Positions 997-59,547 of a stretch of DNA of 64,000 nucleotides are shown here, in pieces. How positions within the stretch are numbered: position 1 is the stretch's first letter; each line of letters starts with the position of its first letter. The position numbers were made by a program, and so were the translations under genes. The DNA comes from Candidatus Poribacteria bacterium (GTDB taxonomy: Bacteria > Poribacteria > WGA-4E > JAJDTR01), in contig CBDCTK010000002.1 in the NCBI GenBank assembly GCA_965222225.1, forward strand, positions 4,224,001 to 4,288,000. The letters are read 5' to 3'. Under the pieces are notes generated by a model. It worked only from the letters and a program-made list of their open reading frames with translations, searched no databases and was not told the DNA's origin.

Positions 997-1092
997 GGAT
1001 CTCTATGGGAGCTCTATCGCGGTCACTACGGGATCTTCTATCGCCTTCGTTAACCACTCTCAGTTGATCGCTCGTTATTCACTCGCTTGATC
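997..1092 (+). repeat. Nested composite of 35-bp micro-elements
   Basis: Three GGA(T/G)C..CTAT heads and two TTGATC tails; same architecture as 57467-57573. Confidence 0.8.
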
Positions 1093-1118
1093 CCGCGCTG
1101 GGGCTTTTAGAGGCTGGT

Positions 1119-1155
1119 GGGATCTCTATCGCATTCGCTAATCGCTCATTTGATC
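1119..1155 (+). repeat. Single 35-bp micro-element inserted in a GTAG-REP hairpin
   Basis: GGGATCTCTATCGCATTCGCTAATCGCTCATTTGATC interrupts GGCTGGTG..GCAGTGCGCACCCTACAAATGTAC; uninterrupted counterpart at about 47180-47212. Confidence 0.85.
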
Positions 1156-1373
1156 GCAGTGCGCACCCTACAAATGTACTTTTCAAACAGGTTCTAAGGC
1201 TTTCTATCAGTGATAAATATTTTTTTCATGTACTTTTACTTCAGTGATTACGTGATGACGTGGATTAGGGTGTGCGGGGGCGGGGGCGGACTTAGGGTGA
1301 AGATTATGAACTAAAGGCGAAAGAACGCGTTCGTAATGGTACTGGGAGAAAACCCTGATAGGCTTAGGTGGAT

Positions 1374-1856
1374 TTACTGAATATTCTCAAGCTCGGTTAA
1401 GTCTTCAACTTCTGCCATTAAAGACAGTGCTTTTGCGTAACCACGCAGTTTTTCTTGTAATTCTTCAAGTTCACACCTGAACTGTCTCACTAGTGCCTCA
1501 TCATTAAATGCATCTTCTAGTGATAGTTTGTGCCACTTCGCCGTAAATGGTCGTATGACTTGATTTAATACAGGTATGGCGATTTTTGCAAACTGAATAG
1601 ATCCAGAACCCTTGTCTTTCAAAATATCACGTGTTATTTGAAATAAGGAATAAACGCTAGTAAGTGCTGTTTTATCATCTCCAACATCAATCGGGAGTGG
1701 TTGAGTTGTGATTCTAGTCAGTAATTCAATGTACAATTCCCAAGCTGCTTCCTTGTCATGTTCTTTGGGCTTGAATTCAGCCTTTAACACATGAATATTA
1801 AGTTTCAATTGTGAAAGTTCTAGCCCAGAAATGGAAAGCCATTTTGAAAGTTTCAA
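1374..1856 (-). CDS. Conserved hypothetical protein (AAWELYIELLTRITTQPL...IRPFTAKWH)
   Basis: 160-aa ORF, TTG start with AGGAGG RBS; protein-like helical sequence in the AT-rich island. Confidence 0.75.
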   Translation of the reverse strand: MKLSKWLSISGLELSQLKLNIHVLKAEFKPKEHDKEAAWELYIELLTRITTQPLPIDVGDDKTALTSVYSLFQITRDILKDKGSGSIQFAKIAIPVLNQVIRPFTAKWHKLSLEDAFNDEALVRQFRCELEELQEKLRGYAKALSLMAEVEDLTELENIQ

Positions 1857-2017
1857 ACCTACCTCCTAATGGGTGACTCCGCAATGTATACATTTTGAAT
1901 TGTACTTCTTAACTTACCCCCATCCTTTAGACAGTAAATGACGAGATTTAAGTAATGAAAACCGACTAAACCTGGTCAAATTGCTGGGCGTAAGTTCAAA
2001 AGAGGGCAAGCATTCTT

Positions 2018-2236
2018 TTAGATGTTGTACCCTAGTTTTGAGAATAGAAGTTGAAGAAGATCTGTATCGTTTTCAAACAACTCGATCGCCGTTTGTGATT
2101 CTAATTCGGTAAAGTGTTTCGTTCTTGACAGATGCTCTTTTATTCGGTTGATTTCGGTCCTACGTTCATTTAGAATCATTTCGACTTCTTCTTGAGTTAG
2201 TTCGCGCCGACTTATGGCTATTTCACGATAATTCAT
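2018..2236 (-). CDS. Small hypothetical protein
   Basis: 72-aa ORF, ATG preceded by AAGGAGGT. Confidence 0.55.
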   Translation of the reverse strand: MNYREIAISRRELTQEEVEMILNERRTEINRIKEHLSRTKHFTELESQTAIELFENDTDLLQLLFSKLGYNI

Positions 2237-2415
2237 AAGTCAAACCTCCTTGAGGATATACTCTGAAGAAAACGAAGATAGAATCCATTAAAGGAATCTT
2301 GGAAGGCTTGGCAAAACGAATTCGACAACTGACCGAAAAAGTAAAAACCAGCATTCATAACAACGTATAGTCCTGACTACTTGGGGATAGCTAGCATTTG
2401 ACTTCTAGTTCCTGC

Positions 2416-2453
2416 AAAAGAAAAGGGAACGCCTGGTGAGAAGGCACTCCCTT
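2416..2453 (-). terminator. Rho-independent terminator downstream of the TIR gene
   Basis: Minus strand AAGGGAGTGCCT-TCTCACC-AGGCGTTCCCTT hairpin followed by TTCTTTT. Confidence 0.55.
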
Positions 2454-2510
2454 AGCACCGGTGGCCGCAATTAACGTTCGCCGAAAAGCCTCGGTCTCTA
2501 TACTATACTG

Positions 2511-3152: not shown

Positions 3153-3167
3153 TGATACCTCCAAGAA

Positions 3168-3548
3168 TTATGTGCGGGAAAAGTACATTACGATAAATGT
3201 CACACCTAGAAGAATCAACGTCAGAGGAACAATAAACCCAAAACTAAACCACAACCTCGACTTAGGCGGAATGTTATTGTCGCCAATCTTAGAAGCGACC
3301 TCACGAAGAACCTTGTTGTTCATATCGACCCCGTGCTTAATCTTGAATATGGTCGCCCCAAAGATGACAAATAAAGTGCCCACTACTGCGAACACCCATT
3401 GCACTGATTCACATTCTGCTTTTACATAGGCTAAAGACAACGGGCCAAGTATCATGACTATCTGCAACATTTGCCAACGTAATCGGTCGAGATAGCGGAA
3501 TGTTTCGTAGCGCTGTTTGTAAATTTCTAGTTCCTCGCATGTAGCCAT
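3168..3548 (-). CDS. Small 3-TM membrane protein, candidate TIR-associated effector
   Basis: ATG at 3548 with AAGGAG RBS; three hydrophobic segments; lies between two TIR genes. Confidence 0.65.
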   Translation of the reverse strand: MATCEELEIYKQRYETFRYLDRLRWQMLQIVMILGPLSLAYVKAECESVQWVFAVVGTLFVIFGATIFKIKHGVDMNNKVLREVASKIGDNNIPPKSRLWFSFGFIVPLTLILLGVTFIVMYFSRT

Positions 3549-3556
3549 GTTTTTAC

Positions 3557-6095: not shown

Positions 6096-6134
6096 TCCTT
6101 TTTTTCAGGGACAATGTCCCTTGACTCTCCCTTG

Positions 6135-12450: not shown

Positions 12451-12487
12451 GGGATCTCTATCGCACTCCTTATTCAGTCGCTTGATC
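12451..12487 (+). repeat. Single 35-bp micro-element in a REP-like (..CCTAC) host
   Basis: GGGATCTCTATCGCACTCCTTATTCAGTCGCTTGATC. Confidence 0.85.
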
Positions 12488-12729
12488 CGTCCTACGGTAG
12501 AAGCCCCGCTGAAAATCCCCATACTATAATCGTACAGTTTTCGATTCAAGTCAAGCAAACAATCAAGTTTGGACTGCCTCCGACCTTGACAACGGAGACG
12601 AAATCGTGCGAGCCACCTTGGGAAGGTTTAGTATCAAACGCATTTTGTCAACGGCTGTGTCCTTTGATTCGTTAGGACTTGTATTCGGATACACAAAGAG
12701 AACGTCAAAGGTAAACTAGGAGGAACGAA

Positions 12730-13566: not shown

Positions 13567-13855
13567 TTCTCAGGACTTGAATGTTGTGTACGCGAACAAA
13601 TGTGATAGGACGTACACAATTGAGCCCTCAAATCCGTCTAACTCGGAGATTTCACCGTAGGGATAAGGAGGATTTCAATCGCGGGGGATTTACTATCGCC
13701 TTAGTATCCGCACAGTTAATTCTATCCGGTCGCTCAACATTCACTCGCCTCAGCCTGCTGTGGGGCTTTCTGCAGGAAATGGTGGGCGGTGCCCACCCTA
13801 CAAATATACTACAGCTCCTAAAATGTCGCGGTTTAGAAAAAGTTTGCAAAAAGAA

Positions 13856-18969: not shown

Positions 18970-19126
18970 GATTAAGCGAGCAAATGGATTGACCGAGATC
19001 GATTTAGCTGATAATGAGGGATCAACCGAACGATGAACTGAGTGGATAACGAAGTCGATAGTAAGTCCTATAGTGAGGGATCAAGGGAACGAACAGTGAC
19101 CGCGATAGAGCTCCCATAGAGATCCC
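18970..19126 (-). repeat. Nested composite of 35-bp micro-elements (minus strand)
   Basis: Outer unit 19020-19126 contains complete inner units at 19079-19115 and 19032-19069; degenerate tails extend to about 18970. Confidence 0.8.
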
Positions 19127-45175: not shown

Positions 45176-45235
45176 CCTAGGTTACCAGTAGCAGACACAC
45201 TCCAATTCCCCTTGCGTAGATTACAGCACGACGAA

Positions 45236-45310
45236 GGGATTTTTATCAGGATCTTCTATCGCCTTGGAATCACTATCGCACTCGTTATTCGCTCTCCTGT
45301 TCGTTCCTAC
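45236..45310 (+). repeat. Degenerate nested micro-element cluster in a REP host
   Basis: Three heads (GGGATTTTTATC, GGATCTTCTATCGC, GGAATCACTATCGC) ending at CCTACTAC. Confidence 0.6.
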
Positions 45311-45325
45311 TACGTTTTAATAACT

Positions 45326-46915
45326 ATGGCGAAACTCAAGGACATCAATACCACCGATATTCGCGACGCAATTCGACTAGGCTGCCGCACGATGTCCAAC
45401 GTGTTCAATGCGGATGACAATGATGTTCCGTTCTTCGGCGCTTACGTGCGTCCCCATCCACCGGCTCTTGTCTGGAGCGACTTGCACGAGGAGGCGCAGA
45501 TTCCCGGCAGGCATCTCAACGCACTACTGGCCGCAGAAAGCATCACCGGTGTGGAGATTGATGAGCAGGTTATTGAAAAGCACGCGCGAGCGGCATTCTT
45601 TGCCTATTCCGGTCCGATGCCATTGCCTCTGAACAGGGAAACAATGGACGGTGTGCCAATCAAGCTGTTTTCACACAACGTCCGCGAAGGCTTCCACGCG
45701 CTGCATGCCCTCGTGCGTTACCGTGATTGCAATCGTGCTAGGGAACTTGCCGAAGGTAGCATCGCCATTATTCTGGAACGTTGGGATCCTGACGATGGCT
45801 GGGAAGGCGATTACCTTGAGGGAAAATTCGGACTAAAGATTTGGGGAACGATTGGCTCAACCTATCGAGATGGGAACATACTTATCGGCTTAGGAAGATC
45901 TGTGGGGCCACTGGTGAAATACTACCGCACAACAGGCTATGGTCCCTCGCTTGAGTTGGCATTGCGGCTGAAAGATAGAATGCTTCAAGATTGCTTCTGG
46001 GAAGAGGGATGCTACGATGCGGAACGGTTCGGACACCATGCGCATTCGATTACATCGTCGATGACTTCGCTGGCGCAATTGGCAGATCTGTTGCAAGATC
46101 CGGCGCTAATGAACCGCGTGAAAACGTTCTACGACAACGGCCTTTGGAGTTTTCGCGACCAGGTCGGCTGGGCAAGTGAGCACGCGGAAGGAGGCGATAG
46201 GCCCGACATGGGGGAGATGAACACCACCGGCGACATCCTGGAAACCGCACTCATTCTAGGAAGCTGGGGTTTTACGCAATACTATGAAGATGCCGAGCGA
46301 ATCCTTCGGTGTCATATCCTTCCATCCCAACTCCGCGACATCTCTTTTTGTGAGGTTGGGGAAAATCCAAATAACGAAGACCGACTGCATGACGTTCCCA
46401 ATCGACTATACGGCGCATTCGGCTTTCCAGCGCCATACGGCCACGCCTCACTAGGCGTCGACGGAATCTGCTTCAATCTGGACGTTGTAGGAGGCACTGT
46501 CGGATCGCTGTGCGCCGCCTATGAATCAATCACGCGTTTTGCTGAAGCCGGACACCGGGTGAACCTGCTATTCGACCACGAAACTGATGCCATAAAGGTT
46601 GAATCTCCCTATACACACGAAGCATTGTATGTTAGACTGAAGCGGAGTGGACCTCTATTTGTACGAATTCCGTCGTGGGTGAAAACAGGAGAGCTAGTCG
46701 TTACGGGAACAGACCAAACGCCAATCCTCAACAATGGTTATGCTTTCTTCCCTCAACCGCCGGTGAATCGCCCTATTGGGATTCGCTTTCCGCTGTCGGA
46801 GCGTGAGATGATCCTAAAGCATACAGCCCGAGATATTCGCGTTCGACTCGGAGGAGACACGGTAGTCGCAATGGAAAATTTTGGGGCAGACCTTACGTTT
46901 TTCGATCCACTTTAA
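45326..46915 (+). CDS. GH127/GH146-like glycoside hydrolase homologue
   Basis: HAHS motif, YYEDAERILRCHI helix, beta-rich C-terminus with LFVRIPSWV; start moved from 45212 because the upstream part is repeat DNA. Confidence 0.65.
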   Translation: MAKLKDINTTDIRDAIRLGCRTMSNVFNADDNDVPFFGAYVRPHPPALVWSDLHEEAQIPGRHLNALLAAESITGVEIDEQVIEKHARAAFFAYSGPMPLPLNRETMDGVPIKLFSHNVREGFHALHALVRYRDCNRARELAEGSIAIILERWDPDDGWEGDYLEGKFGLKIWGTIGSTYRDGNILIGLGRSVGPLVKYYRTTGYGPSLELALRLKDRMLQDCFWEEGCYDAERFGHHAHSITSSMTSLAQLADLLQDPALMNRVKTFYDNGLWSFRDQVGWASEHAEGGDRPDMGEMNTTGDILETALILGSWGFTQYYEDAERILRCHILPSQLRDISFCEVGENPNNEDRLHDVPNRLYGAFGFPAPYGHASLGVDGICFNLDVVGGTVGSLCAAYESITRFAEAGHRVNLLFDHETDAIKVESPYTHEALYVRLKRSGPLFVRIPSWVKTGELVVTGTDQTPILNNGYAFFPQPPVNRPIGIRFPLSEREMILKHTARDIRVRLGGDTVVAMENFGADLTFFDPL

Positions 46916-47225
46916 GCTCGACTTTGTACATTTGAGCGACACAACAAACGGTCTCAATCAAGCGTTGAAGAAAAGCAGGGACATTTTGATTATCTGGCCT
47001 AGATTATCTGGCCTATTTGATTGACCATTGAAAAAGTCCGCCCCGAGCGGTTCTAATTCCTATACAATCTGTGAAATCTCTATCGTCCTCGCTATTCGTT
47101 TGGTTGAACTCGCACTGGGACTTTGGTGTGGTGCGACTCGGTGTTGCTATACACCTGCCGCGCCTCCGGCGCTTTCAAAGGCTGGTGGGCAGTGCCCACC
47201 CTACAAATGTACAAAGTCGAGTTTA
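46913..47225. mobile_element. MITE-like element with 22-bp terminal inverted repeats
   Basis: TAAGCTCGACTTTGTACATTTG (46913-46934) / CAAATGTACAAAGTCGAGTTTA (47204-47225), 21/22; contains a micro-element (47073-47109) and a GTAG-REP hairpin. Confidence 0.7.
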
Positions 47226-47512
47226 GAGCCTGTTTGAATAATGGATGGCAGAATAATTCTGATTAGCTAAATAGCTGGGTTTCACTGGGAGCTCTATCGC
47301 GAGCAAAGGGGATTCCATCTTCGAATTCATGATCGAAGATGGCTCCTACAGAAGACGCACAATAAATTGCGCTACTGCAAACCGAACTTGGTAGATCCTA
47401 TCTGCATGATTCTTAGTTGCAATAACTAAAATCCCAATTCCTTAGCGCCACCACAGCTTAACACACTCACATCGACTATCGAGACCACTAAAACAGTCAC
47501 GGGGGTACACAT

Positions 47513-50020: not shown

Positions 50021-50141
50021 GGAGATTACTATTCACCACTAAAGACATATGGATGGAACGACATCCCCATCCTTCCGACCTTACATGTGACTTTAGAAGA
50101 TAGGCATACCTATCGTAATTACTTCAGGAGGAGAAATAACC

Positions 50142-51368
50142 ATGCAGGTAAATCCGAAACAGTTGTGGGAGGACGGTTTCATCATTATTCCAGACTGCGT
50201 CCCCCCGAATCGCCTTGATGAGTTACGCAACAGTTTCGAGGTTCTTGTTGAACGCCAGAAAGAGATATGGGCGCGGGAACGCAATCCCGACGACCCACCA
50301 GGCGGTCACTGGGAAACGGGTGCACAGCCGAGGGTCAGCTTCAGTCCACTCATTGACGAGGAAACCGCCAATGCCGTTGAATTCTGTCTGCAAGAGAACA
50401 CGCTAGGCGTTAGTTGTCAAGTGATGCAAGCACCTGAAACAATCCTCAAGTACATTACAATGATGTGCAGCCCATTGCGGGATCATGGTCCTTCAGGGTG
50501 GCATCGTGATATCGAACCCTATCGCGACGGTCCGCTGAGCGGTTTACAAGCGGATATGGCGGCGAACGGTGTGGGTACTGTGCAATGGAACATTGCGCTC
50601 TACGATGACGATGTCCTTTGGATAGTCCCAGGCAGCCACCGACGCCGCAACACCGATGCCGAGAATCGTACACTGCTGGAAAGTTCGCGGGTGCCGCTCC
50701 CCAATAGCATCCCAGTGCAACTCAAGGCAGGCGAAGGTGTGGTCTATTCCAACGCGATTCTCCACTGGGGCAGCAACTACAGCACGAAATTGAGACGGAC
50801 AATCCATCTCGCGTTCCGTGCGTATGGGAGTGACCTGTTTTCATACCGGCCCTATCTCAACTGGACGATTGACTTCAGCAAACATCTGTCTCCGTGGGGA
50901 CGAGGGATTGTTGAGCGGTTCGCCAGTCGTTTCACCGCTGAGTTTGACGTTATCGCGCAGACCTTCCGTGCGGTCATCGACAAAGACGAAACCGCCTTTC
51001 TCGAAGGCCTTGCAATGCTTCACCCCGGCGAAGAGCATCGGATGATCTGTGTCATGTTTCTAACTAAGCTGGCGTACAAAGTCCACTTGCTCAACCAGCC
51101 CGAGGTAGCGACGCTCCCCGATCCTGCACAGGCGGGACAGATTGGATGGCCATGGGAATGTGTCGATGTCCTTCAGAACATCGCTCGCCGCTTCACCATT
51201 GATGAAACTAATCTCCTGTGGCATCGCTTCGCCGATATGGACAATAGACTCAAGTCGGAAGAGGACCAATACGTTCCCGGCTTCCAGACCGGTCCCACGA
51301 AGTACCTGTTCTACGACATGCCTCCGAATTTTGAAGTCGAGGACTTCATCGCCACCTGGGATTCCTAG
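50142..51368 (+). CDS. PhyH-family Fe/2OG dioxygenase
   Basis: WHRD, VPGSH, LHWGSNYS..RRTIH. Confidence 0.88.
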   Translation: MQVNPKQLWEDGFIIIPDCVPPNRLDELRNSFEVLVERQKEIWARERNPDDPPGGHWETGAQPRVSFSPLIDEETANAVEFCLQENTLGVSCQVMQAPETILKYITMMCSPLRDHGPSGWHRDIEPYRDGPLSGLQADMAANGVGTVQWNIALYDDDVLWIVPGSHRRRNTDAENRTLLESSRVPLPNSIPVQLKAGEGVVYSNAILHWGSNYSTKLRRTIHLAFRAYGSDLFSYRPYLNWTIDFSKHLSPWGRGIVERFASRFTAEFDVIAQTFRAVIDKDETAFLEGLAMLHPGEEHRMICVMFLTKLAYKVHLLNQPEVATLPDPAQAGQIGWPWECVDVLQNIARRFTIDETNLLWHRFADMDNRLKSEEDQYVPGFQTGPTKYLFYDMPPNFEVEDFIATWDS

Positions 51369-51646
51369 AAGCGTGTAGTAGGAGCGAGCTCTGCTCGCGA
51401 TTATTGAGGCAAAAACGCTTCTCCTACCGTGGCCACGACATCCTAGGGGGTCGGATGACCTTCACCCTCAAAAAAGAACAACAATGTGCCCGCGCTTACC
51501 AGCCACTGATCACTAGCCAACTAGTCACCGCTTTTCTGTTGATCAATCGTCCGATAACTGCTAGAATACTCTATACTTCGCTCCTCAAGTATCGTCGAAA
51601 GTTAACCGCGACACCGAAGCCTTAACTTAAGGAAGGAGAGGTTAAA

Positions 51647-52624
51647 ATGGCTTTAACACAAGCGCAACTCAATAAGTTTCACGAAGATGGCTTTCTCATA
51701 GTGGAAGACGTTTTCGACAAGAAGGATGTGGAAGCCGCTAGAATCGAAATGGAAAAGATCTTCTACGGCACGAGTTTCGAGGATTACCTTGCGAAGTTTG
51801 ACTCCACCGGCGAAGCGGAATCCGCCGACCCCACCCATACGGGGGCAGTTGCCCACTACGGCGAAACAAAACACGGGCGCCCCCAATTCCCGACAGGCAT
51901 TGACGCACTCGATCGCCTCATTGAGAACGATGACTATCTTGACATGTATGAGCAATGCCTCGGAACATCGGACATAAGTTACTGCAACGGCCACCTGTTT
52001 CTGCGCACAGGCCCCACCGACGAGCGACACGCCGAACACCCGTGGCAAGGATATCACATTGACCATTCAACAAACTGCTTTCTGCCGCCTAGCCAGGAGG
52101 TGGATTTATATAACTATGTTAACTCCGGCGTTTATCTCCACGATGTTGAAGACGATGGCGCCCCGATGCAAATCATCCCCGGCACCCATCGCCAGATTAT
52201 TGATCTGCTGCCCCGGCTTATTGAAGAGGATAACTGGACCGGGCACGGAGGAATTAAAGATATCCGGGAAATCCCCGAATTTCCCCCACCCGTAGCCACC
52301 ACTGCCAAGGCAGGCAGCGTCCGATTCAATAGTTCCTACGGTGTTCACGCGGCGATCCCCTTCAAAAACAAGCGTAGACAGCGAGGATATTGGACACTCT
52401 CACTCTGCCGCGGAGATAGCAGCCAGTTCACGAAATTGTCGAACCTATGGAGGGAACGGGAGTTTTCCGTTCCATTCTGGCAGACAACCACATCGCGCGT
52501 GCGGTCACTTTTCGGTTGGCCCAAGCCGGGACACCCCTACTACACGCCCGAGACCGTTGAATTCCTCGCACACTGGTATCCGGAGATGGACCTAACGCCG
52601 TATAAAGAAGCAATGGAGGGGTGA
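51647..52624 (+). CDS. PhyH-family Fe/2OG dioxygenase
   Basis: YHID, IIPGTH, VHAA..R. Confidence 0.88.
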   Translation: MALTQAQLNKFHEDGFLIVEDVFDKKDVEAARIEMEKIFYGTSFEDYLAKFDSTGEAESADPTHTGAVAHYGETKHGRPQFPTGIDALDRLIENDDYLDMYEQCLGTSDISYCNGHLFLRTGPTDERHAEHPWQGYHIDHSTNCFLPPSQEVDLYNYVNSGVYLHDVEDDGAPMQIIPGTHRQIIDLLPRLIEEDNWTGHGGIKDIREIPEFPPPVATTAKAGSVRFNSSYGVHAAIPFKNKRRQRGYWTLSLCRGDSSQFTKLSNLWREREFSVPFWQTTTSRVRSLFGWPKPGHPYYTPETVEFLAHWYPEMDLTPYKEAMEG

Positions 52625-53517
52625 TGCCCCGAATTGATGCTCATCTTCACGTTTTCACCAAGGCGTCCACAGAGTTTCCGAGGGAAACCAATGAACTCTG
52701 GCCCGCTGAGCGGGAAGAATCCGTGGAAAAATTGCTAGTTGAGATGGAAACGCATCAGATTGACCAAGCGGTGTTGGTGCAACACCCTGGCGTGCAGATT
52801 GTGCGTCACGCCTATCTTTTGCACTGCCTCAGAACCTACCCGGACCGTTTTTTGGGCATTGGACTTATATCTCCCGATCTTCCCGACGTTGAAACCCACA
52901 TGGACACCTTGACAGATGGGACCGGGATTATCGGTTTTCGTCTTTCGACAATCGGCGGTCCTCGGGATCCCTTTGAAAAGATAAGTGTGAAGCAGCTCCG
53001 CGCCTATCGCATTTGGAAACACGCCGCAGAGAAAGATTATGTGCTCTGGCTGATTCTCCAAGCGCGCGATGCACATCTACTGCCTTATCTGCTTACCGAA
53101 TTCCCCCAGGTCAGAATTGTCATTAACCACCTTGGTATATGTCCAGGTAAAGGCAAGCTCTCATGGGGTACAAATTGCTGGCCGCGAATAGAAACACCGA
53201 TGTACAATCCGGCGTTCCACACGACCTGGCGTCTCGCACAATTCGAGAACGTCGCAATGTTGCTGTGTCTTCAGTACGCATTCAGCAACGAGCCGTTCCC
53301 ATATCGAGATCTTACGAACTGGCATCGCAGCCTCTTACGCATCTACGGATCCAAACGTCTCATGTGGGCGACCGATTTCCCGTGGATTCTTGAAGACCCG
53401 GGCTACGGCAAACTAACAACTATCATCAAAGAATTAATGCCCGATTTAACAGAGGATGAATACCGCGACATCATGGGCGGAACGGCAAAACGGTTCCTGC
53501 GCTTTCCCGACCAATGA
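52621..53517 (+). CDS. Amidohydrolase_2 family protein (lactonase-like)
   Basis: IDAHLHVF, VINHLG, RLMWATDFPW. Confidence 0.88.
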   Translation: MMPRIDAHLHVFTKASTEFPRETNELWPAEREESVEKLLVEMETHQIDQAVLVQHPGVQIVRHAYLLHCLRTYPDRFLGIGLISPDLPDVETHMDTLTDGTGIIGFRLSTIGGPRDPFEKISVKQLRAYRIWKHAAEKDYVLWLILQARDAHLLPYLLTEFPQVRIVINHLGICPGKGKLSWGTNCWPRIETPMYNPAFHTTWRLAQFENVAMLLCLQYAFSNEPFPYRDLTNWHRSLLRIYGSKRLMWATDFPWILEDPGYGKLTTIIKELMPDLTEDEYRDIMGGTAKRFLRFPDQ

Positions 53518-53658
53518 CTCGTTTTACACGGAGCGCACTGCCCTTTCTTCCTAACAGGTAAGATTAGGAACTTGTAGCACGGGTTTTAGAATCCACGTTT
53601 ATTCGCCTCGATCTACTCCCTTTTTTGAATCGCGCATCACCTGCTAAGAGGAAAAAAG

Positions 53659-54411
53659 ATGGACATTGAAGCGTTAAAAACAGAACTGGACGAGTACGGT
53701 TTCGTAGTTCTTCCCGACCTGATTCCGGCACCGGATGCCCGACACATGGCAAAGCGGCTGATGGAAATCATGGATCAGATTCCCGATTCCCACGATTTCA
53801 GCGGCGCCAATGAAACGAGTCAACACCTGCGGGGTGTTTTCAACTTTCTGCACCCTAGCGAGTTCGATCTTTTTGAGCAGATAGTTATAAATCCCGTTCT
53901 CCTTGAATTGGCGGACTACAAACTTGGCGATGGCTTTCAACTCAACACGGTCGCAGCACTCTGGCGCAAACCCGGTGCGACAATCGGCAAACTCCACGCC
54001 GATTTGCCGATGTTGACGAGGCGTGAGACTCCGTTCCCCACCCCCAAGGTGTGCTTTCTGCTCAACTGTCTATGGATGTTGGACGATTTCACTAAGGAAA
54101 ACGGTGCCACGCGCGTGATGCCTTTCAGCCATCACGCCGGAATCGCCCCTAGAGCCGAAGTAGACTACCGGCATTTGGTGCCAATCGAAGGACGCGCCGG
54201 ATCGGTTGTCGTGCTCAATGGTCCGGTTTGGCATGCCGCTTGGTCAAACACGACGAAAGATGACCAACGTATTGGCGCCCCCGTTCCCTATCATGCACGG
54301 TGGATGGATCCCACCGATCCGGCTCTGGGATGGTGCCTCCATAAACGCAGCGTCCGGGACAAATTCTCGCCCATGATGCAAGAGCTAACGCAACACGTAG
54401 AAGACGACTGA
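53659..54411 (+). CDS. PhyH-family Fe/2OG dioxygenase
   Basis: LHAD, DDFTKENGATRVMPFSH, WHAAWSN..R. Confidence 0.9.
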   Translation: MDIEALKTELDEYGFVVLPDLIPAPDARHMAKRLMEIMDQIPDSHDFSGANETSQHLRGVFNFLHPSEFDLFEQIVINPVLLELADYKLGDGFQLNTVAALWRKPGATIGKLHADLPMLTRRETPFPTPKVCFLLNCLWMLDDFTKENGATRVMPFSHHAGIAPRAEVDYRHLVPIEGRAGSVVVLNGPVWHAAWSNTTKDDQRIGAPVPYHARWMDPTDPALGWCLHKRSVRDKFSPMMQELTQHVEDD

Positions 54412-54656
54412 TTAGCCGTGTAGGGTGGGCACTCCGTATCAGCCTTTAACCATCCTCGGGTTTTGCACTTCGGTTTGTAGTAGCGCAATTCATTGCGCGT
54501 TTTTTGGAGAAGTTAGTTCTGTTCGCGAACCAACAACGTTACTCGCGATAGAAGGACGCGATCGGTGTCGAACTACGAAAATCCTACTGTATTTATTCGT
54601 GTTAATCGGTGCCCTTCTGACTTCTCGTTCCCCTCAACTCAAGGAGGAAACAAACA

Positions 54657-55472
54657 ATGGCACTCACACCCCAACAATGCGAATTCTTCGATTCATTCGG
54701 ATATCTCGTGCTGCCCGGCTTACTGGCGGACGATGTCGATTGGATGGTTGAAGAACATCGCAAGGTTTTTGAACAGAACGGCATCGTCCATGATGGCACG
54801 AAACGCTCTTTCATCGTGCCGTTCATAGATCAAACCGAGAAGCTATGTACCTTACTCGACCATCCCAAGGTGCTTGAGGTGCTCGGATCTCTGTTAGGCG
54901 ATGATTTCAATTACGTCGGCAGCGATGGCAGCTACTACAGTGGCAGCACAAATTGGCACGATGACGGCGGACATCGGCCCGGCGGGCTCACCTTCGCGAA
55001 ATTCCATATCTATCTTGACACGCTGACACGCGATACGGGCTGTATCCGCGTCATCCCCGGCAGTCACCTATCAGGCGGATGGAGAGACCAACTCAGGAAG
55101 AACATCTGGCTGCAACCGTTCAGCGAAACTATAGGTGTCCTGGGGAGCGATATTCCTTGTGTCGCAATTGGAAACCAGCCTGGGGACGTCGCTGTGTTAA
55201 ATCACACCACCTATCACGCAACCTTCGGGGGCGGACCGGCACGTCGTCACTTTGACCTCAATCTGTCAAGTCGCGCAAAAACGGAAGAAGAACTCGCAGA
55301 CCTTGAGAAGTTCATCCTACCGAAAGAACGAACAAAAGAGAAACCCAGCAAATACGCGCCGGGGGTACAAGACATTATGCTCGGCACGGCTACTCCCGAG
55401 CGCATGCGCCACCTTGAGCAAGTCATTGAGCGCGAAAACCTCGATCGTGCGGCATGGGAAGCTACACAATAG
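54657..55472 (+). CDS. PhyH-family dioxygenase, tandem paralogue 1
   Basis: WHDD, IRVIPGSH, TYHATFGG..RR. Confidence 0.9.
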   Translation: MALTPQQCEFFDSFGYLVLPGLLADDVDWMVEEHRKVFEQNGIVHDGTKRSFIVPFIDQTEKLCTLLDHPKVLEVLGSLLGDDFNYVGSDGSYYSGSTNWHDDGGHRPGGLTFAKFHIYLDTLTRDTGCIRVIPGSHLSGGWRDQLRKNIWLQPFSETIGVLGSDIPCVAIGNQPGDVAVLNHTTYHATFGGGPARRHFDLNLSSRAKTEEELADLEKFILPKERTKEKPSKYAPGVQDIMLGTATPERMRHLEQVIERENLDRAAWEATQ

Positions 55473-55560
55473 TTATTGGTTTAAGGCGGAATCGGCAAGC
55501 AGCAAATCGCCGCTGGAGCGAAAGGCTGTTCAATTTTCGAAATGAGGTACATAGCCTAAA

Positions 55561-56352
55561 ATGACGCTTACCCCCCAACAATGCACTTTCTTCGAATCAT
55601 TTGGCTATCTAATTCTGCCGGGTTTATTGACGGATGACATTGATTGGATTATCCGGGAGCATCAAAAAGTCTTTGAGCAGGAGGGAGTCGTTCATGATGG
55701 CACAAAGCGCTCCTTTATTGTCCCTTTCATTGACGAAAGCAAGCATCTGTGTACTCTCCTCGATCATCCCAATGTCGTCGGGGTGCTCAGCTCGTTGTTG
55801 GGCGACTTCAACTACGTAGGGGGTGGCGGCAACTACTACAGCGGCGACACGAATTGGCACGACGACGGAGGACATCGCATCGGAGGTCTGGTTTTCGTCA
55901 AGTTTCATATATATCTCGATCCACTGACGCGCGAAACAGGTTGTATCCGAGTGATCCCAGGCAGCCATCTAGATGGCAAATGGAGGGACCAGCTACATAA
56001 AATCCGCCTTCAGGCGTTCAGCGAGGATTTGGGGATTCGAGGAGACGATGTCCCGTGTGTTACCGCTGAAACCGAACCCGGCGATGTCGTCGTCTTGAAT
56101 CACACAACGTATCACGCTTCCTTCGGCGGCGGGCCGGCACGTCGTCATCTTGACCTCAACGCCTCCAGTCGAGCGAGAACCGATGCCGAGTTCAAAGATC
56201 TCGACAAATTCATCAAGATTATAGAAGGCTTCAAACGGCAAAAGGAGCCAACGGGAGCAGAAGACATGATTCTCGGGACCGCCTCTCCCGAACGAATGCG
56301 CCACCTTGAACAGGTAATAGAACGCGAAAACTATCTTCACAACGCTCCGTGA
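55561..56352 (+). CDS. PhyH-family dioxygenase, tandem paralogue 2
   Basis: WHDD, IRVIPGSH, TYHASFGG..RR. Confidence 0.9.
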   Translation: MTLTPQQCTFFESFGYLILPGLLTDDIDWIIREHQKVFEQEGVVHDGTKRSFIVPFIDESKHLCTLLDHPNVVGVLSSLLGDFNYVGGGGNYYSGDTNWHDDGGHRIGGLVFVKFHIYLDPLTRETGCIRVIPGSHLDGKWRDQLHKIRLQAFSEDLGIRGDDVPCVTAETEPGDVVVLNHTTYHASFGGGPARRHLDLNASSRARTDAEFKDLDKFIKIIEGFKRQKEPTGAEDMILGTASPERMRHLEQVIERENYLHNAP

Positions 56353-56475
56353 TTGTAGGGTGGGCACTGTCCACCAGTCGTTGAACTTGCATGTGAGATG
56401 TTTTGCGCATTACGCAATGCTTCATCGCCATTCCCGTTACGCTTTGATATTCAACACAAAGGATGCAACCCTAAA

Positions 56476-57267
56476 ATGACTCTTACTCCGCAACAATGCA
56501 CCTTCTTCGAATCATTTGGCTATCTGATTCTACCGGACTTGATGACGGACGACGTCGCCTGGATAATTGAGGAGCATCGGAAGGTTTTTGAGCAGAAGGG
56601 CGTCAATCACGACGGATCAAAACGCTCTATGATCGTCCCATTCAGCGATCGGAGCGAGCGACTCTGCACGCTTTTAGACCATCCGAAGGTACTCGGTGCG
56701 CTGAAATCCCTACTCGGCGATGATTTCAACTACGTGGGTGGCGACGGGAACTACTACAGCGGCGAAACCGGATGGCACTCCGACGGTGGGCATCAAGTCG
56801 GTCTCTTCGCCAAATTTCATCTCTATCTTGACCCGCTGGCACGGGATACAGGAAGCATTCGCGTGATTCCCGGCAGTCACCTTATCGGGCCGTGGAGAGA
56901 CCACCTTCAGCGGACTCGTCAGCCAAACGAACTATTAGGAGTACCGGGACGCGATGTTCCATGCATCGCCGCTGAAACCGAACCCGGCGATGTTGTTGTG
57001 TTCAATCATAACATTTACCACGCCTCTTTCGGTGGGGGCACTGCTCGCCGCCACATGTGCCTCAACGTGACGAGCCGAGCAAGAACCGAAGCCGAAATCA
57101 ACGAACTTGACAGCTACCTACGCCCGGGCGGAAGACCGAAGCATTGGCCCGGAAAATATGCGCCCGGCGCACAAGACATCATGCGCAATACGGCTTCTCC
57201 CGAGCGGTATGTCCATCTGGAACAGGTAATTCAACGCGAGCAGTACTATATAAACGCAGCGCAATAA
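56476..57267 (+). CDS. PhyH-family dioxygenase, tandem paralogue 3
   Basis: Start set by homology (MTLTPQQC); WHSD, IRVIPGSH, IYHASFGG. Confidence 0.9.
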   Translation: MTLTPQQCTFFESFGYLILPDLMTDDVAWIIEEHRKVFEQKGVNHDGSKRSMIVPFSDRSERLCTLLDHPKVLGALKSLLGDDFNYVGGDGNYYSGETGWHSDGGHQVGLFAKFHLYLDPLARDTGSIRVIPGSHLIGPWRDHLQRTRQPNELLGVPGRDVPCIAAETEPGDVVVFNHNIYHASFGGGTARRHMCLNVTSRARTEAEINELDSYLRPGGRPKHWPGKYAPGAQDIMRNTASPERYVHLEQVIQREQYYINAAQ

Positions 57268-57353
57268 ATTAAGGGAGCACCACGCACCCGCCTTTGAGTT
57301 TTGTCTATCTTTGTTTATCCCTTGTCGTTTGTGCGTCTTTTACCATCTACCAA

Positions 57354-57650
57354 TAGGACTTACGTAGCAACAGGAGGCAGCTCCGGTGGGCAGGGATTAA
57401 GCAAGCGATAGCGCGTGCGATAGATATGTTTTTGCCCTGCCACGCATGGGCGGTCGCGATCGGGAGAGGATCTCTATGGGAACCCTATCGCACTCACTAC
57501 AAGATCTACTATCGCCTTCGTTATTCACTCAGTTGATCGTTCGCTTGATCGCTCCTTATCCAGTCGCTTGATCTTACAGGGATTGTGCGCAGAAATAGGA
57601 ATTAACCTACTCTGCCGCTAGCTTTTGAGTGTTCAATCGTGTAAGTCCTA
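57354..57650. mobile_element. MITE-like element with TAGGACTTAC/GTAAGTCCTA ends carrying micro-elements
   Basis: Inverted ends at 57354-57363 and 57641-57650; contains a minus-strand micro-element (57395-57427) and a triple nest (57467-57573). Confidence 0.6.
57467..57573 (+). repeat. Triple-nested 35-bp micro-element
   Basis: Three heads followed by three TTGATC tails, parsable as unit within unit within unit. Confidence 0.85.
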
Positions 57651-57710
57651 TACAAACCAAAGGGGATCTGTTTCTCATCGTGCGCCACAATCCAAGGACG
57701 AAACCTCAAA

Positions 57711-58514
57711 ATGTCATTGACCCCACAACAGTGCTCGTTCTTTGAGTCGTTCGGATACATCCTTCTGCCGCGTTTGATGACCGAAGACATTCCTTGGATA
57801 ATTGAGGAACACAGAAGAGTCTTTGAGAAAAAGGGAATCGTACATGACGGAAGCAGGCGTTCTCAGATTGTGCCTTTCAGCGATCAGAGCGAGCGACTCT
57901 GTACTTTACTCGACCATCCCAAAGTGCTCGGTGTACTTACGTCGCTGCTTGGAGACGACTTCAATTATATCGGCGGCGACGGCAACTTCTACAGCGGCGA
58001 CACAAACTGGCATTCCGACGGCTTTCATACAGTCGGTCTTTACGCCAAGTTTCATCTTTATCTCGACCCGCTGACGCGCGACACCGGTTGTATCCGCGTG
58101 ATTCCCGGCAGCCACCTAAGTGGACCATGGCGGAATCAGGCAGAACGTGGTCGCCAATCAAACGAAAATTTTGGAATCCCGGGCAGCGGCGTTCCCTGTG
58201 CCGCCATCGAGACCGAACCCGGTGACATCGTGGTATTCAATCACAATATCCTCCATGCTGCATACGGTGGAGGCACCGCCCGTTGCCACTTTTGTTTGAA
58301 TGTATCACGTCGGGCGAAAACCGAGGCCGAAATCGAAGAGCTCCACAAATACATCCGTCGTCCCGATGGATTGCCTCGTTATCATCCGAGATCCGCCAGT
58401 GTACACTCGGAACTGATGCGCCGTACCGCATCTCCCGCACGAATGCGTCACTTAGAGCAGGTTATCGAATGCGAAAGCCAGTGGCTAACAGCTAGGAGAG
58501 ATTCGCACATATGA
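57711..58514 (+). CDS. PhyH-family dioxygenase, tandem paralogue 4
   Basis: WHSD, IRVIPGSH, ILHAAYGG. Confidence 0.9.
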   Translation: MSLTPQQCSFFESFGYILLPRLMTEDIPWIIEEHRRVFEKKGIVHDGSRRSQIVPFSDQSERLCTLLDHPKVLGVLTSLLGDDFNYIGGDGNFYSGDTNWHSDGFHTVGLYAKFHLYLDPLTRDTGCIRVIPGSHLSGPWRNQAERGRQSNENFGIPGSGVPCAAIETEPGDIVVFNHNILHAAYGGGTARCHFCLNVSRRAKTEAEIEELHKYIRRPDGLPRYHPRSASVHSELMRRTASPARMRHLEQVIECESQWLTARRDSHI

Positions 58515-59347
58515 CAACCTCCGATATACTTGCCGGCGAACCGGAACTCGTTGCAACCGGATTTAAATTCACGGAAGGCCCCGTCTGGCACCCCGATGGC
58601 TATCTCTTCTTGAGCGACATTCCGGCACATCGAATCTTTAAATTGACGCCCGACGGCACTTCGGAAATCTATCGCGAACCCAGCGGCGGTGCCAACGGAT
58701 TAACCTTCGATCGCCAAGGCAGGCTCATTGCGTGTGAATACCACAGCCGTCGCGTTTCCCGCATGGAAATTGACGGCACTATCAGCACCCTCGCAGACAA
58801 CTACCGCGGCAGGCGCTTGAATAGCCCCAATGATGTGGTGGTGAAATCGAACAGCAGCATCTATTTCACCGATCCGTTCTACGGTTTCCCCGCATCCCAG
58901 GAACGTGAACTTGATTTTCAGGGCGTCTACCGCATCGCCGCGGATGGGACAATTTCACTGCTTGTCGAAGATTTCGGTGTTCCAAACGGATTGGCATTCT
59001 CACCGGACGAATGTATCCTGTATATTGACGATTCAAGGCACCAGCATGTCCGCGCCTTCGACGTTTTATCGGACGGCTCCCTCGCCAACGGGCGTATCTT
59101 GATCGATATGACAGCCGATGCGCGAGGCGCCGCAGATGGAATGAAGGTAGATATCGCCGGTAATCTCTATGTCACTGGCGCAGGCGGGACATGGGTTATC
59201 TCTCCGACAGGTGAGCACCTCGGAACCATCGTCACCCCTGAATTGCCGGAGAACTGCGCCTTCGGCGGGCCGGACCATAAGACACTCTTTATCGCAGCCA
59301 GAACCTCAATCTACAGCATTCGGCTCAAAATCAGCGGCGTCCAATAG
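58511..59347 (+). CDS. SMP-30/gluconolactonase family protein
   Basis: FTEGPVW, ANGL, LNSPND, PNGLAFSPD, ADGMKVD. Confidence 0.93.
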   Translation: MTTSDILAGEPELVATGFKFTEGPVWHPDGYLFLSDIPAHRIFKLTPDGTSEIYREPSGGANGLTFDRQGRLIACEYHSRRVSRMEIDGTISTLADNYRGRRLNSPNDVVVKSNSSIYFTDPFYGFPASQERELDFQGVYRIAADGTISLLVEDFGVPNGLAFSPDECILYIDDSRHQHVRAFDVLSDGSLANGRILIDMTADARGAADGMKVDIAGNLYVTGAGGTWVISPTGEHLGTIVTPELPENCAFGGPDHKTLFIAARTSIYSIRLKISGVQ

Positions 59348-59475
59348 TGATTTCCGCGTTATTCGTCATGTCGGCATCGGTGCGTACTATTCTGCTTTTT
59401 TTACGCATTATACCATTTCTCCATATTTACAGCGCATTAATAGCGTCAATCAAGTCTCTCCGAGGCGGGGAAAGG

Positions 59476-59547
59476 GGATTTCTATCGCACGGGACTTACT
59501 ATCGCGCTCCCTGTTCAGTCGCTTGATCGCTATTCGCTTGCTTGATC
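59476..59547 (+). repeat. Double-nested micro-element in the loop of an AGGCGGGG/CCCCGCCT REP hairpin
   Basis: Inner unit 59492-59527 splits outer unit; host stem arms at 59463-59470 and 59547-59554. Confidence 0.85.

Follow-up and report, generated by a model that had tools for sequence, protein, structure and literature searches.

The intergenic regions of a 64-kb stretch of a Candidatus Poribacteria genome (the whole stretch of DNA analysed, hereafter the window) hold short, variable sequences that a first-pass annotation had read as copies of a single dispersed, non-coding micro-element, the variable dinucleotides of which co-vary as a hairpin and which is mobilised in trans. Are these sequences copies of one structured element and, if so, how could such a small element spread?

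A dispersed repeat of about 36 nt

On the written strand (F) the unit reads RGRATYT(N)-CTATCGC-nn-TC-nn-TAYYC-nn-TC-nn-TTGA(TC), and on its complement (R, the structure or "GA" strand) (G)ATCAA-n1n2-GA-n3n4-GRAYA-n4′n3′-GA-n2′n1′-GCGATAG-(N)-ARATYYY. The pattern first proposed did find matches, seven with at most two mismatches in the window versus none in 100 dinucleotide shuffles, but its constant left arm is less fixed than had been written, and the right end of the unit proper is at TTGA or TTGAT. A covariance model built from seven window units and run with filters off (threshold E ≤ 1) returned 13 matches in the window, of which seven match by construction, being the units used for building, and four are weak (E 0.006–0.1); the sites are those annotated at first (Table 1). 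All are intergenic by crude open reading frames (ORFs), and one overlaps only an over-long 5′ extension of an ORF.

The arrangement of the first composite in Table 1 is of the same type as nested and left-arm insertions found elsewhere in the genome, and the single unit that follows it, counted below among the filled sites of the REP-P palindrome, lies between palindrome halves at about 1093–1118 and 1156–1175. In the composite at 57467..57576, the loop TAC^TC of the outer unit holds the complete inner unit; this is the loop insertion at genome position C2:4281484-4281550. No unit is marked at the intergenic site of 45236..45310 in the four related genomes compared, and the REP2 corresponding to that at 59476..59547 is empty in a related genome (G009).

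Table 1. Copies and fragments of the element in the window (positions are those of the window; the strand is that of the GA strand)
Feature	Position	Strand	Evidence
Composite of four pieces	997..1092	-	sequence; model match 1031-1072, 43.4 bits
Piece 1, left-end remnant	997-1006		
Piece 2, left half of a unit broken in the loop	1007-1029		
Piece 3, complete inner unit with 2-nt TC duplication	1030-1067		
Piece 4, short unit, hairpin and TTGATC without CTATCGC	1068-1092		
Complete single unit inside REP-P palindrome	1119..1155	-	sequence and pattern; model match 1119-1158, 55.4 bits
Complete single unit	12451..12490	-	exact pattern match; model, 55.9 bits
Degenerate unit	13686..13724	-	model, 21.6 bits, E 0.006
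Cluster of two full units and flanking short or partial units	18970..19126	+	pattern and model
Full units of this cluster	19029-19068, 19076-19115	+	52.5 and 53.9 bits
Left-arm remnants, then one decayed unit (45266-45305, two unpaired stem cells)	45236..45310	-	pattern and model
Diverged unit	47073..47112	-	model, 26.6 bits, E 4e-4
Weak fragment	47287..47337	-	model, 16.6 bits, E 0.099
Degenerate unit, opposite orientation	57392..57430	+	sequence; model, 18.4 bits, E 0.036
Composite: left-end remnant, outer unit holding inner unit, short unit	57467..57576	-	sequence and model
Inner unit of this composite	57502-57541		56.1 bits
Short unit of this composite	57546-57576		model, 18.8 bits
Nested units inside a GTAG-tagged REP (REP2), between its arms; full unit 59492-59531	59476..59547	-	pattern and model

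Across its own genome (G000), the pattern gave 600 exact matches and 1031 with up to two mismatches, and the most abundant 12-mers of this genome are those of the element (284 copies for the top one); the reversed pattern, used as a control, had no match in 41 genomes. The copies are mostly non-coding, as had been claimed (78 of 1009 lie within crude ORFs of at least 120 aa), and form about 500 separate clusters over the whole chromosome, 282 of them single copies, with up to 28 copies in 7.4 kb in the densest pile-up. Rfam gave no match at the gathering threshold over the whole 64-kb window, nor at E ≤ 1 for positions 900–1300. A repeated DNA element of roughly 36 nt is thus confirmed as real.

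High copy numbers are limited to two genera of sponge-associated Candidatus Poribacteria, with presence in 14 of 14 genomes and about 1000 copies per genome; three other bins have 2–17 pattern matches, mostly limited to a few contigs. Among seven sister genera sampled (26 genomes), six lack any match and the seventh has 2–4. The framing by the small dispersed repeats (SDRs) of cyanobacteria, suggested at first, does not suit this host, a member of Candidatus Poribacteria in which HIP1 is rare (120 copies).

Pairing is conserved in the stem

In the seven full units of the window, 26 of 28 stem cells pair on the GA strand, three of them as G.U/T; shuffles give 57.7% and none of 500 reaches the observed value. 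Genome-wide, copies were anchored on CTATCGC, 17 nt and TTGATC, so that the interior of the unit was left unconstrained, which gave 749 copies and, among them, 347 different interiors (no other spacing between 12 and 23 yields more than five copies). By mutual information, the four predicted pairs rank first to fourth among 136 position pairs (1.04, 0.79, 0.68 and 0.33 bits), with Watson–Crick counts of 546, 694, 704 and 636 of 749. The wobble had been noted on the opposite, GA strand, and so it is found: A-C on F, which is G.T on R, occurs 171, 23, 23 and 92 times at the four pairs (309 cells), versus 6, 7, 7 and 9 times for G-T on F (29 cells). Altogether 654 of the 749 anchored copies are fully paired. 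They carry 166 stem haplotypes, the commonest of which holds 59 copies, so that the element is not limited to a single larger repeat that was duplicated; of the 54 fully Watson–Crick haplotypes that are possible, 37 are seen. In other Poribacteria genomes, 97.1% of cells pair versus 64.7% in shuffles (0 of 500; 146 distinct matches), a figure that leans towards pairing because the alignment was fitted to the model and only the best 150 matches were used. Thus, at n1–n4 it is shown that pairing is conserved and not sequence, and that G.T is tolerated only on R.

The stem consists of 2 bp, GA facing GA, and 2 bp, with a loop of 5 nt and an optional ATC/GAT extension across an AA/GC internal loop. 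The facing GA dinucleotides and both flanks are 94–99% invariant, even where they were not used for finding copies; the 749-copy counts include no pair type with A on the 5′ side of GA or T on its 3′ side, and the context Y-GA-R occurs in about 71% of copies. The invariant GA/GA and this context suggest that the facing dinucleotides form tandem sheared G.A pairs. With RNA parameters R has the more stable fold of the two strands in 169 of 200 copies (average −5.4 kcal/mol), and 117 of 200 share a common fold that includes the ATC/GAT extension; DNA nearest-neighbour parameters, which have no tandem-GA term, give almost no stability (average −1.6 kcal/mol).

Insertion sites and proposed mobility

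Units nested inside units, also part of the original description, are borne out by 14 units of 35–36 nt inserted at TAY^TC, the loop of the outer unit, and by seven inserted between its first variable dinucleotide (V1) and TC, that is, in the stem. Copies thus interrupt other copies in both loop and stem, follow one another head to tail, and lie within several families of GTAG-tagged REPs, in which the element is co-oriented with the GTAG strand. The REP-P palindrome was found empty 102 times and filled, at one fixed point, by 17 inserts of 45 nt with mostly different stems. A unit 25 nt after the stop codon of an IS200-like gene is present at three loci and missing from five, and the loop of REP2 is filled in one genome (G007) and empty in another (G004). 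Among 126 filled/empty events, 93 show a net gain of 34–36 nt and 38 are clean by an automatic measure. The insertion point is always 3′ of a G on R (often GA, and GA in the clean cases); no target duplication accompanies the insertions, and one to three target bases are lost at GC sites. The 5′ junction on R is sharp; the 3′ junction is fuzzy, with variable purines on F and 0–3 target bases lost. CTAC is found within 24 nt after the core in 298 of 1046 copies versus a background of 5%, mostly contributed by neighbouring REPs, and directly follows TTGATC in only 25.

Between species, orthologous intergenic sites differ in the four regions examined, with lengths from 59 to 4933 nt. Such presence/absence differences, between paralogous repeats and between species, fit the proposed mobility, which is taken to be in trans because an element of 36 nt has no room for a gene. 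Public runs showed no polymorphism for the insertion or excision of units.

Orientation and replication

The orientation of the element follows GC skew in G000: with 50-kb skew, F:R is 291:180 where skew is positive and 155:383 where it is negative (OR 4.0). Counted as 2-kb clusters, the figures are 141:80 vs 71:172 (p 1e-13), and the bias holds within gene-orientation strata; bin-level Spearman coefficients are 0.47, 0.54 and 0.74 at 50, 100 and 250 kb. The GA strand is therefore found on the C-rich strand by about 2:1. This polarity is shared by four further hairpin repeat families, namely three GTAG-tagged REP families and the repeat flanking the IS200-like gene (OR 0.15–0.45). There is no consistent link to the strand of neighbouring genes; among co-directional genes the GA strand is sense in 335 cases and antisense in 283. 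In a second genome (G001), 40 sparse 20-kb samples gave agreement in 16 of 34 regions (rho 0.13), a sampling that performs poorly in G000 too (61% agreement), and 1.2 Mb of contiguous sequence gave rho 0.41 (p 0.18, 12 bins), an OR of 1.5 for clusters (p 0.24) and, by copies, 73:69 vs 31:108. This is a partial replicate, with the same sign but not significant, and most of the support for a link to replication comes from one genome. By the published rule, the top strand of IS200/IS605 elements lies on the lagging-strand template, the G-rich strand (PMC6006769); relative to skew, the polarity of the element in G000 is opposite to this rule.

Candidate enzymes

An HUH/RAYT-type mover or a reverse transcriptase had been put forward. 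Genes of the Y1/RAYT type are indeed present (six matches to PF01797 in the genome), but none of the three subfamilies traced follows the distribution of the element or is regularly flanked by it. A RayT-type remnant, C-terminal only, lies within one of the densest clusters of G000. Units in G000 flank a RAYT fragment and an IS200-like gene; in the second carrier genus, units lie beside the RayT-type genes of two genomes (G015 and G027). The RayT-type gene has a patchy distribution, in 39 of 176 genomes, whether or not they carry the element, and in every genus the REP that flanks it is another, GTAG-tagged one. The IS200-like gene (157 aa), whose own terminal hairpins differ from the element, is found in seven of seven sampled genomes of an element-free genus and in two of four of the second carrier genus. 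For the third RAYT subfamily, no unit was found within 1.5 kb at six of six loci with a full-length gene in other genomes of the same genus. Neither IS110 nor TnpB was found, and a noisy split-unit search (300–4000 nt) recognised no full-length parent element with the same ends. The only reverse transcriptase match in the genome is weak (27.5 bits), adjoins a gene that was taken, on visual inspection, for a type I restriction subunit, and looks defence-type, which makes the reverse transcriptase route unlikely. 

A model for spread and its alternatives

We regard it as moderately probable that the repeat is a non-autonomous, REP- or SDR-like hairpin micro-element, specific to two Poribacteria genera and moved as single-stranded DNA. 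The R strand would fold into a mini-hairpin of 2 bp, tandem sheared G.A, 2 bp and a pentaloop, possibly extended by ATC/GAT; a structure-reading single-strand nuclease or transferase, supplied in trans, would cut out or copy this hairpin. During replication it would then attach the hairpin 3′ of a G in other DNA that is prone to form hairpins and is transiently single-stranded. An HUH Y1 protein of the RAYT/IS200 kind would be the likeliest candidate for this enzyme. Only copies in which shape and constant contacts are both preserved would breed, and the stems would for that reason be free but compensated. With one to three bases lost at GC sites and 38 of 126 events clean, insertion is untidy for a precise HUH cut-and-paste. 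Doubtful, in our estimate, is a bolder proposal: a micro-transposon of single-stranded DNA, addressed by its shape, that lives as a parasite of REP/RAYT systems and uses the other strand from IS200/IS605, moved by an enzyme, or an enzyme mode, so far unconnected with bacterial repeats. If true, a 36-nt hairpin with facing GA dinucleotides and short flanks as its only fixed features would insert 3′ of G in the GTAG arm of several unrelated REPs and in its own copies, and would enter or survive on the opposite strand, for example through the nascent lagging strand.

Could the copies instead be sites kept by the host for a nucleoid, replication, recombination or repair protein, or for structure, under selection locus by locus as has been proposed for REPs, with spread secondary? 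The 94–99% conservation of constant positions even outside the search anchors, the presence of the element in every genome of both genera and a skew polarity common to REP families, as for polar chromosomal motifs, would be expected of such sites; yet species differ in where the copies lie at the four orthologous intergenic regions examined, copies pile up and interrupt one another, the polarity is moderate, and six of the seven sister genera sampled gave no match. We therefore consider this explanation unlikely. An origin at the RNA level, with the GA strand acting as a structured transcript motif or an RNA intermediate being copied back by a reverse transcriptase, appears quite unlikely. RNA is well known for tandem G.A within short helices, G.U-type wobble is tolerated on one strand only, the RNA-parameter fold is consistent, and metatranscriptome contigs cover the window, although such coverage does not show transcription; but orientation follows GC skew and is not tied to neighbouring genes, Rfam gave no match at either threshold, the single reverse transcriptase match is that described above, and nested insertions destroy the hairpin of the outer copy.

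Replication slippage, template switching and recombination among hairpin-rich repeats, with no dedicated transposition, would account for the head-to-tail arrays (five units with a 34-nt period at locus L076; 38-nt arrays in G000), the left arms duplicated in some copies, the one fuzzy junction and the prevalence of co-orientation among neighbours within 400 nt in G000 (265 vs 73 opposite). Such processes are hard to reconcile with some 500 clusters spread chromosome-wide, many of them single copies, with the same 34–36 nt block at unrelated sites with a fixed right junction, or with a wide diversity of stems without matching neighbours, and we find them very improbable as the sole cause.

Comparison with known systems

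Four known systems come closest to the element. Integron attC sites (57–141 bp) flank gene cassettes and need an integron integrase; what is recognised is the folded form of a single strand, in which stems vary but pair and unpaired bases are conserved. The element would share this mode of recognition and has such stems and conserved bases, but a gene-cassette context was not seen around it. The SDRs of heterocyst-forming cyanobacteria, reportedly described by Elhai et al. in 2008, are said to be units of 21–27 nt with a shared predicted hairpin and compensatory changes, nested within each other and with no known enzyme. Hairpin, compensation and nesting, as reported for SDRs, would be common to both; compared by description only, the element differs in its phylum, longer unit, invariant facing GA and GTAG-tagged REP targets.

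IS200/IS605 elements and their gene-less derivatives resemble it in the lack of a target duplication, in insertion 3′ of a short fixed sequence on one strand, in a hairpin read as single-stranded DNA (as proposed for the element) and in a replication-linked orientation (PMC6006769). The element, however, has one hairpin and not two subterminal ones, a target of only G or GA, one fuzzy end and the opposite polarity versus skew, and the noisy search gave no full-length element with the same ends.

REPs, which are GTAG/CGTC-tagged extragenic palindromes, are defined by a GTAG or GTGG 0–2 nt 5′ of a hairpin with a fully paired stem of 7–20 nt; a genome may hold several families, and Y1 enzymes acting on single strands have been proposed to move them (PMC6006769). 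The element has neither tag, a constant GATCAA forming its 5′ flank on the GA strand, and its stem is 2+2 bp around GA/GA instead of 7–20 paired nt with a loop of 2–5 nt. At about 36 nt and about 1000 copies, however, it falls within the description of REPs as 20–40 bp, extragenic and of high copy number, and it is inserted in GTAG REPs with the same orientation and strand polarity. For two traits of REPIN–RAYT systems, inverted doublets as the replicating unit and a single cognate RAYT gene flanked by the repeat, the observations are mixed: neighbouring units in G000 are mostly direct, whereas one locus of the second genus (L056) has three inverted pairs, and units flank some RayT-type genes, but no cognate RAYT regularly flanked by the element emerged across genomes. 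Its paired stem changes recall the compensatory changes described for REPIN hairpins (PMC3116915). Because the hairpin is kept while the stems vary, and because it inserts into repeats and into its own copies, the element looks like the small mobile hairpin repeats of other bacteria.

Co-variation and fold of the micro-element

The micro-element is a dispersed unit of about 36 nt whose stems are constrained in shape, with wobble on one strand, and whose GA/GA bases and flanks are invariant (F is used for the strand as first written and R for its complement, the GA strand). In the window, the sequences at the coordinates listed by the first-pass annotation match their description on reading, and the pattern CTATCGC-nn-TC-nn-TAnnC-nn-TC-nn-TTGAT, with up to two mismatches, occurs seven times as against none in 100 shuffles. 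A covariance model of the R strand, trained on seven window units, returned 13 matches at E ≤ 1 in the window, seven of them by construction and four of them weak, which coincide with the sites annotated at first pass. All window units are intergenic by crude ORF calls, and no described Rfam family was matched by the micro-element or by any other part of the window.

For the genome-wide analysis, copies in the window's own genome (G000) were anchored on CTATCGC, 17 free bases and TTGATC only, a choice made against circularity. This yielded 749 copies with 347 distinct interiors (other spacings gave at most five copies each), in which the interior constants not demanded by the anchor (TC, T, A, T, C and TC) are 86–99% conserved. 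The hairpin co-variation of the dinucleotides, as claimed at first pass, is real: among 136 position pairs, the four predicted stem pairs rank as the top four by mutual information. The Watson–Crick share of the stem cells is 73–94% across the 749 copies, 654 of which are fully paired at all four positions. Exceptions to Watson–Crick pairing cluster at the outermost and the loop-closing pairs; they comprise 309 A-C cells on F, equivalent to G.T on R, as against just 29 G-T cells, which bears out the wobble assigned earlier to the opposite strand. Fully Watson–Crick stems were observed in 37 of the 54 possible combinations, and since there are 166 stem haplotypes, the commonest with 59 copies, a few lineages cannot account for the signal. 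Other Poribacteria species show pairing in 97.1% of the cells of a model-fitted alignment of the best 150 matches, compared to 64.7% in shuffles, none of 500 reaching the observed value.

Some stem pair types were never seen among the 749 anchored copies and, as a result, the base 5′ of each GA on R is never A (a pyrimidine in about 71% of the copies) and the base 3′ is never T (a purine in about 72%). On physical chemistry, contexts of the Y-GA-R type are favoured for tandem sheared G.A pairs, the geometry that we infer for the micro-element. With RNA folding parameters, R is the stabler of the two strands in 169 of 200 copies, and a single common fold, with an extra outer ATC/GAT helix, is found in 117 of the 200; DNA parameters, which have no tandem-GA term, predict almost no stability.

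Copy number and host range

The genome G000 (5.70 Mb in two contigs, 50% G+C) holds 600 exact copies of the micro-element and 1031 pattern copies with up to two mismatches, and its most frequent 12-mers are those of the unit. HIP1 is rare in this genome (120 copies). A scan with each species represented by a single genome listed 80 loci, of which 74 fall in Candidatus Poribacteria MAGs and six are single matches in unrelated taxa; this places the host in a sponge-symbiont lineage and rules out a cyanobacterial origin. Across 176 genomes of the phylum, the micro-element is abundant in two genera only: that of the window (10/10 genomes, 476–1065 exact matches) and one genus of another family (4/4 genomes, 152–177 exact matches). 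The covariance model, run on 41 genomes, agrees with the pattern search, and gave no match in the 26 genomes sampled from seven other genera, with at most 150 candidates scored per genome. Three further Poribacteria genomes (G066, G146 and G010) have a few copies each, mostly confined to a handful of contigs, and the copy density on the few contigs of G066 resembles that of the carrier genus; these sporadic copies are read, short of proof, as binning contamination. No match was found in a plasmid collection or in viral contigs, and the four matches in JGI metagenome contigs, all one unpaired sequence found four times, are taken as chance.

Other repeats are numerous in G000. A palindromic 12-mer family, AAACTCGGTTTC, has 123 copies and the CCTGTTTGAA family has 94, both unrelated to the micro-element. 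The window also carries a further GTAG-tagged palindrome, which begins GTAGTAGCGCAAT and continues with its inverted half; the bin that holds it far exceeds all others in the summed contig depth of the aligned public runs (2498 in one of them, X3), so that it forms a very abundant repeat family in its own right.

Insertion sites and junctions

Units are found preferentially in REP arms and in their own hairpin, and they turn over between species (see also below). The nesting of units within units proposed at first pass was confirmed: a complete unit of 35–36 nt lies in the loop of another (TAY^TC) in 14 cases, including one in the window, and in seven it separates the first stem dinucleotide of the outer unit from the TC; when the inner unit is deleted in silico, the outer one is paired again. 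Head-to-tail TTGA|RGRAT junctions and arrays are also present. One array in another Poribacteria genome has five head-to-tail units with a period of 34 nt, and arrays in G000 have a 38-nt period and include a GTAG tag.

The palindromic, GTAG-tagged family REP-P (155 copies with up to two mismatches in G000) is a hot spot for the micro-element. It is empty in 102 occurrences in G000; its first fixed point holds 17 inserts of 45 nt, with mostly different stems, and its second point is filled in 15 copies, 11 of which share one stem set, which suggests a single event amplified along with the host repeat. Further hosts are the unit's own left arm, the hairpin repeat flanking an IS200-like gene, the loop of a second GTAG REP and a third REP.

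Insertion takes place 3′ of a G without target duplication, with one sharp and one fuzzy end. On R, the unit begins ATCAA after the G of every junction; a GA target gives a clean insertion, and a G followed by C gives the loss of 1–3 target bases. The F left arm varies in its first purines, hence the difference between the two ends. The net gain is 34–36 nt in 93 of 126 filled/empty events; substitutions between paralogous empty sites add noise to the automatic junction measure, and only its net-length distribution and clean-case count were used. Manual comparison with the junctions led us to drop a model of GATC restriction fragments or GAT-core recombination, and one of pure insertion between G and ATC, since the junctions or the net length that they predict (31–32 nt) misfit the observed 34–36 nt. 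A parent element bearing the ends of the unit was sought as split units 300–4000 nt apart; the 66 candidates, dominated by adjacent partial units, showed no recurrent length.

Orientation and strand polarity

In G000, CTAC, which reads GTAG on R, lies within 24 nt after the hairpin core in 298 of 1046 cases, over a background of 5%; R thus runs in the same orientation as the GTAG strand of the host REPs. The orientation of the units tracks the local GC skew of this genome: the F:R ratio is 291:180 at positive 50-kb skew and 155:383 at negative skew, so that F favours the G-rich strand and the hairpin strand is mostly on the C-rich strand. The effect is also seen with 2-kb clusters (141:80 vs 71:172, p = 1e-13), persists within gene-orientation strata and gives bin-level Spearman coefficients of 0.47, 0.54 and 0.74 at 50, 100 and 250 kb, respectively; no tie to the orientation of neighbouring genes was found in G000. 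The same polarity is seen in three GTAG REP families and in the hairpin repeat flanking the IS200-like gene. In REP-P, REP2 and REP3, it is the GTAG strand that is biased to the C-rich strand. The polarity rule of IS200/IS605 (PMC6006769) is the opposite of that of the micro-element.

The replicate in a second species (G001) is weak: 16 of 34 regions agreed (rho 0.13) among 40 sparse 20-kb samples, a design that gives only 61% agreement even in G000. Over 1.2 Mb of contiguous G001 sequence, the copies divide 73:69 vs 31:108, with rho 0.41 for bins (p = 0.18) and an odds ratio of 1.5 for clusters (p = 0.24). A link between unit orientation and replication thus has support from one genome and is tentative beyond it. 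Over the whole length of contig C2 of G000, the GC skew flips sign about a dozen times instead of twice; these flips may stem from rearrangements, which repeats could have driven, or from joins in the assembly.

Turnover between species and public reads

At a position 25 nt past the stop of the IS200-like gene, a unit is present at three loci and absent at five, and the loop of REP2 carries a unit in one species but not in another. Of four intergenic regions of the window compared with their orthologues, with lengths of 59–4933 nt, three were inspected at the sequence level, and in these no unit occupied a shared position. Across nine genomes of the genus, the gap orthologous to window positions 45170–45330 spans 59–4933 nt and that orthologous to 46915–47500 spans 327–2781 nt; entire genes or large blocks of repeats have therefore been gained and lost there. 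The public data consisted of 24 runs, all as Logan contigs, four of which were aligned to window positions 44500–60500. These contigs break at repeats and show many repeat-to-repeat joints, and one joint, from 59487 to 59530 with five foreign letters, is indistinguishable from cross-mapping. The runs thus yielded no usable polymorphism for insertion or excision, and no evidence bearing on transcription.

Candidate enzymes

The unit is only 36 nt long and so encodes nothing. A search of G000 with PF01797 (Y1) gave six matches.

Repeat features and candidate genes, with their locations
Feature	Location	Description
REP-P halves	window 1093-1118 and 1156-1175	
Unit inserted in the loop of another	window 57502-57541	
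GTAG-tagged palindrome	window 54473-54495	
Head-to-tail array	L076:5793-5968	
IS200/IS605-type Y1 gene	G000 C2:3080258-3080728	157 aa; PF01797 match; NCBIfam 65.8 bits, cut-off 55
RAYT-like gene	G000	247 aa; PF01797 match
RAYT-like pseudogene	G000	PF01797 match; flanked by a different REP
Frameshifted Y1 copy	G000	PF01797 match
RAYT-related fragment	G000	PF01797 match; flanked by inverted units
Sixth PF01797 match	G000	sub-threshold, 17 bits; read as a short IS200-like fragment
RayT-type C-terminal remnant	G000 C2:1545633-1545950	tblastn; HUH half missing
Weak RT match	G000 C2:4499559-4505067 region	671-aa protein; the only RT match in G000

The first-pass annotation had suggested that an HUH/RAYT-type nuclease or an RT might move the unit. 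Y1 and RAYT genes are present in G000, yet none of the families traced follows the distribution of the micro-element. The IS200-like gene is found in 7/7 sampled genomes of one non-carrier genus and in 2/4 genomes of the second carrier genus, and the RayT-type gene occurs in 39 of 176 genomes regardless of the presence of the micro-element. In all genera, the RayT-type gene is flanked by a different, GTAG-tagged REP, with units there in carrier genomes only, and no unit lies within 1.5 kb of the full-length relatives of the RAYT fragment in other members of the window's genus (6/6 loci). IS110 and TnpB gave no match in G000 with working controls, and a Y2/IS91 search gave none with a control that likewise matched nowhere. 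An RT is an unlikely mover, the lone weak match being assigned to a defence gene from its neighbourhood alone: it adjoins a 1016-aa protein, by eye the R subunit of a type I restriction system, and the locus is probably a defence island. Dense clusters gave no lead to a source gene; the largest are ordinary multi-gene regions with several units per intergenic gap. The most economical guess is a candidate HUH Y1 enzyme acting in trans, because such enzymes read single-strand hairpins, occur in G000 and are the accepted partners of the REPs with which the micro-element is associated.

The 157-aa gene itself has inverted terminal repeats of about 80 nt, each made of two GCCCCnnnGGGGC hairpins, copies of which are dispersed through G000; G001 has two copies of the gene, 3 kb apart. 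The REP associated with the RayT-type gene, GTAGGTTGGGTTGA..., coexists in G000 with REP-P, REP2 and REP3. The surroundings of the RayT-type remnant, a 9-kb region with 24 micro-elements and many REPs, are among the densest unit clusters.

A model for spread, and comparison with known repeats

We propose that the GA strand would fold as single-stranded DNA, that a trans-acting single-strand nuclease or transferase would read the fold and its flanks, and that, at the replication fork, the unit would be inserted into other single-stranded DNA prone to form hairpins. Compensated stem diversity would arise if shape-competent copies alone propagate. The polarity, opposite to that of IS608, may reflect entry via the other strand or better survival on it.

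To our knowledge, the spread of very small bacterial repeats is a largely unsolved problem. The micro-element offers an unusually clean natural experiment, with about 1000 copies per genome in 14 genomes of two genera: its near-saturated, compensated four-pair stem maps what the machinery reads (shape, GA/GA and flanks), its self-nesting gives exact junctions, its preference for the arms of GTAG REPs is strong and its polarity is testable against replication. The units also cause breaks in the short-read assemblies of a major sponge-symbiont group, and may drive the rearrangements hinted at by the choppy GC skew. We rate the micro-element as of interest for the study of bacterial repeats and of single-strand transposition, and not as a new category. 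Literature searches on Poribacteria repeats returned nothing relevant, only unrelated papers.

The micro-element behaves like a REP or an SDR, the small dispersed repeats of cyanobacteria. REPs are defined by a GTAG tag beside the hairpin and by a long perfect stem, whereas the micro-element has neither, and no cognate RAYT could be demonstrated for it. The link between REPs and RAYTs is accepted, and we know of no case in which a REP insertion has been reconstructed, nor of an enzyme for the cyanobacterial SDRs. These SDRs combine nesting with compensatory hairpins, as does the micro-element.
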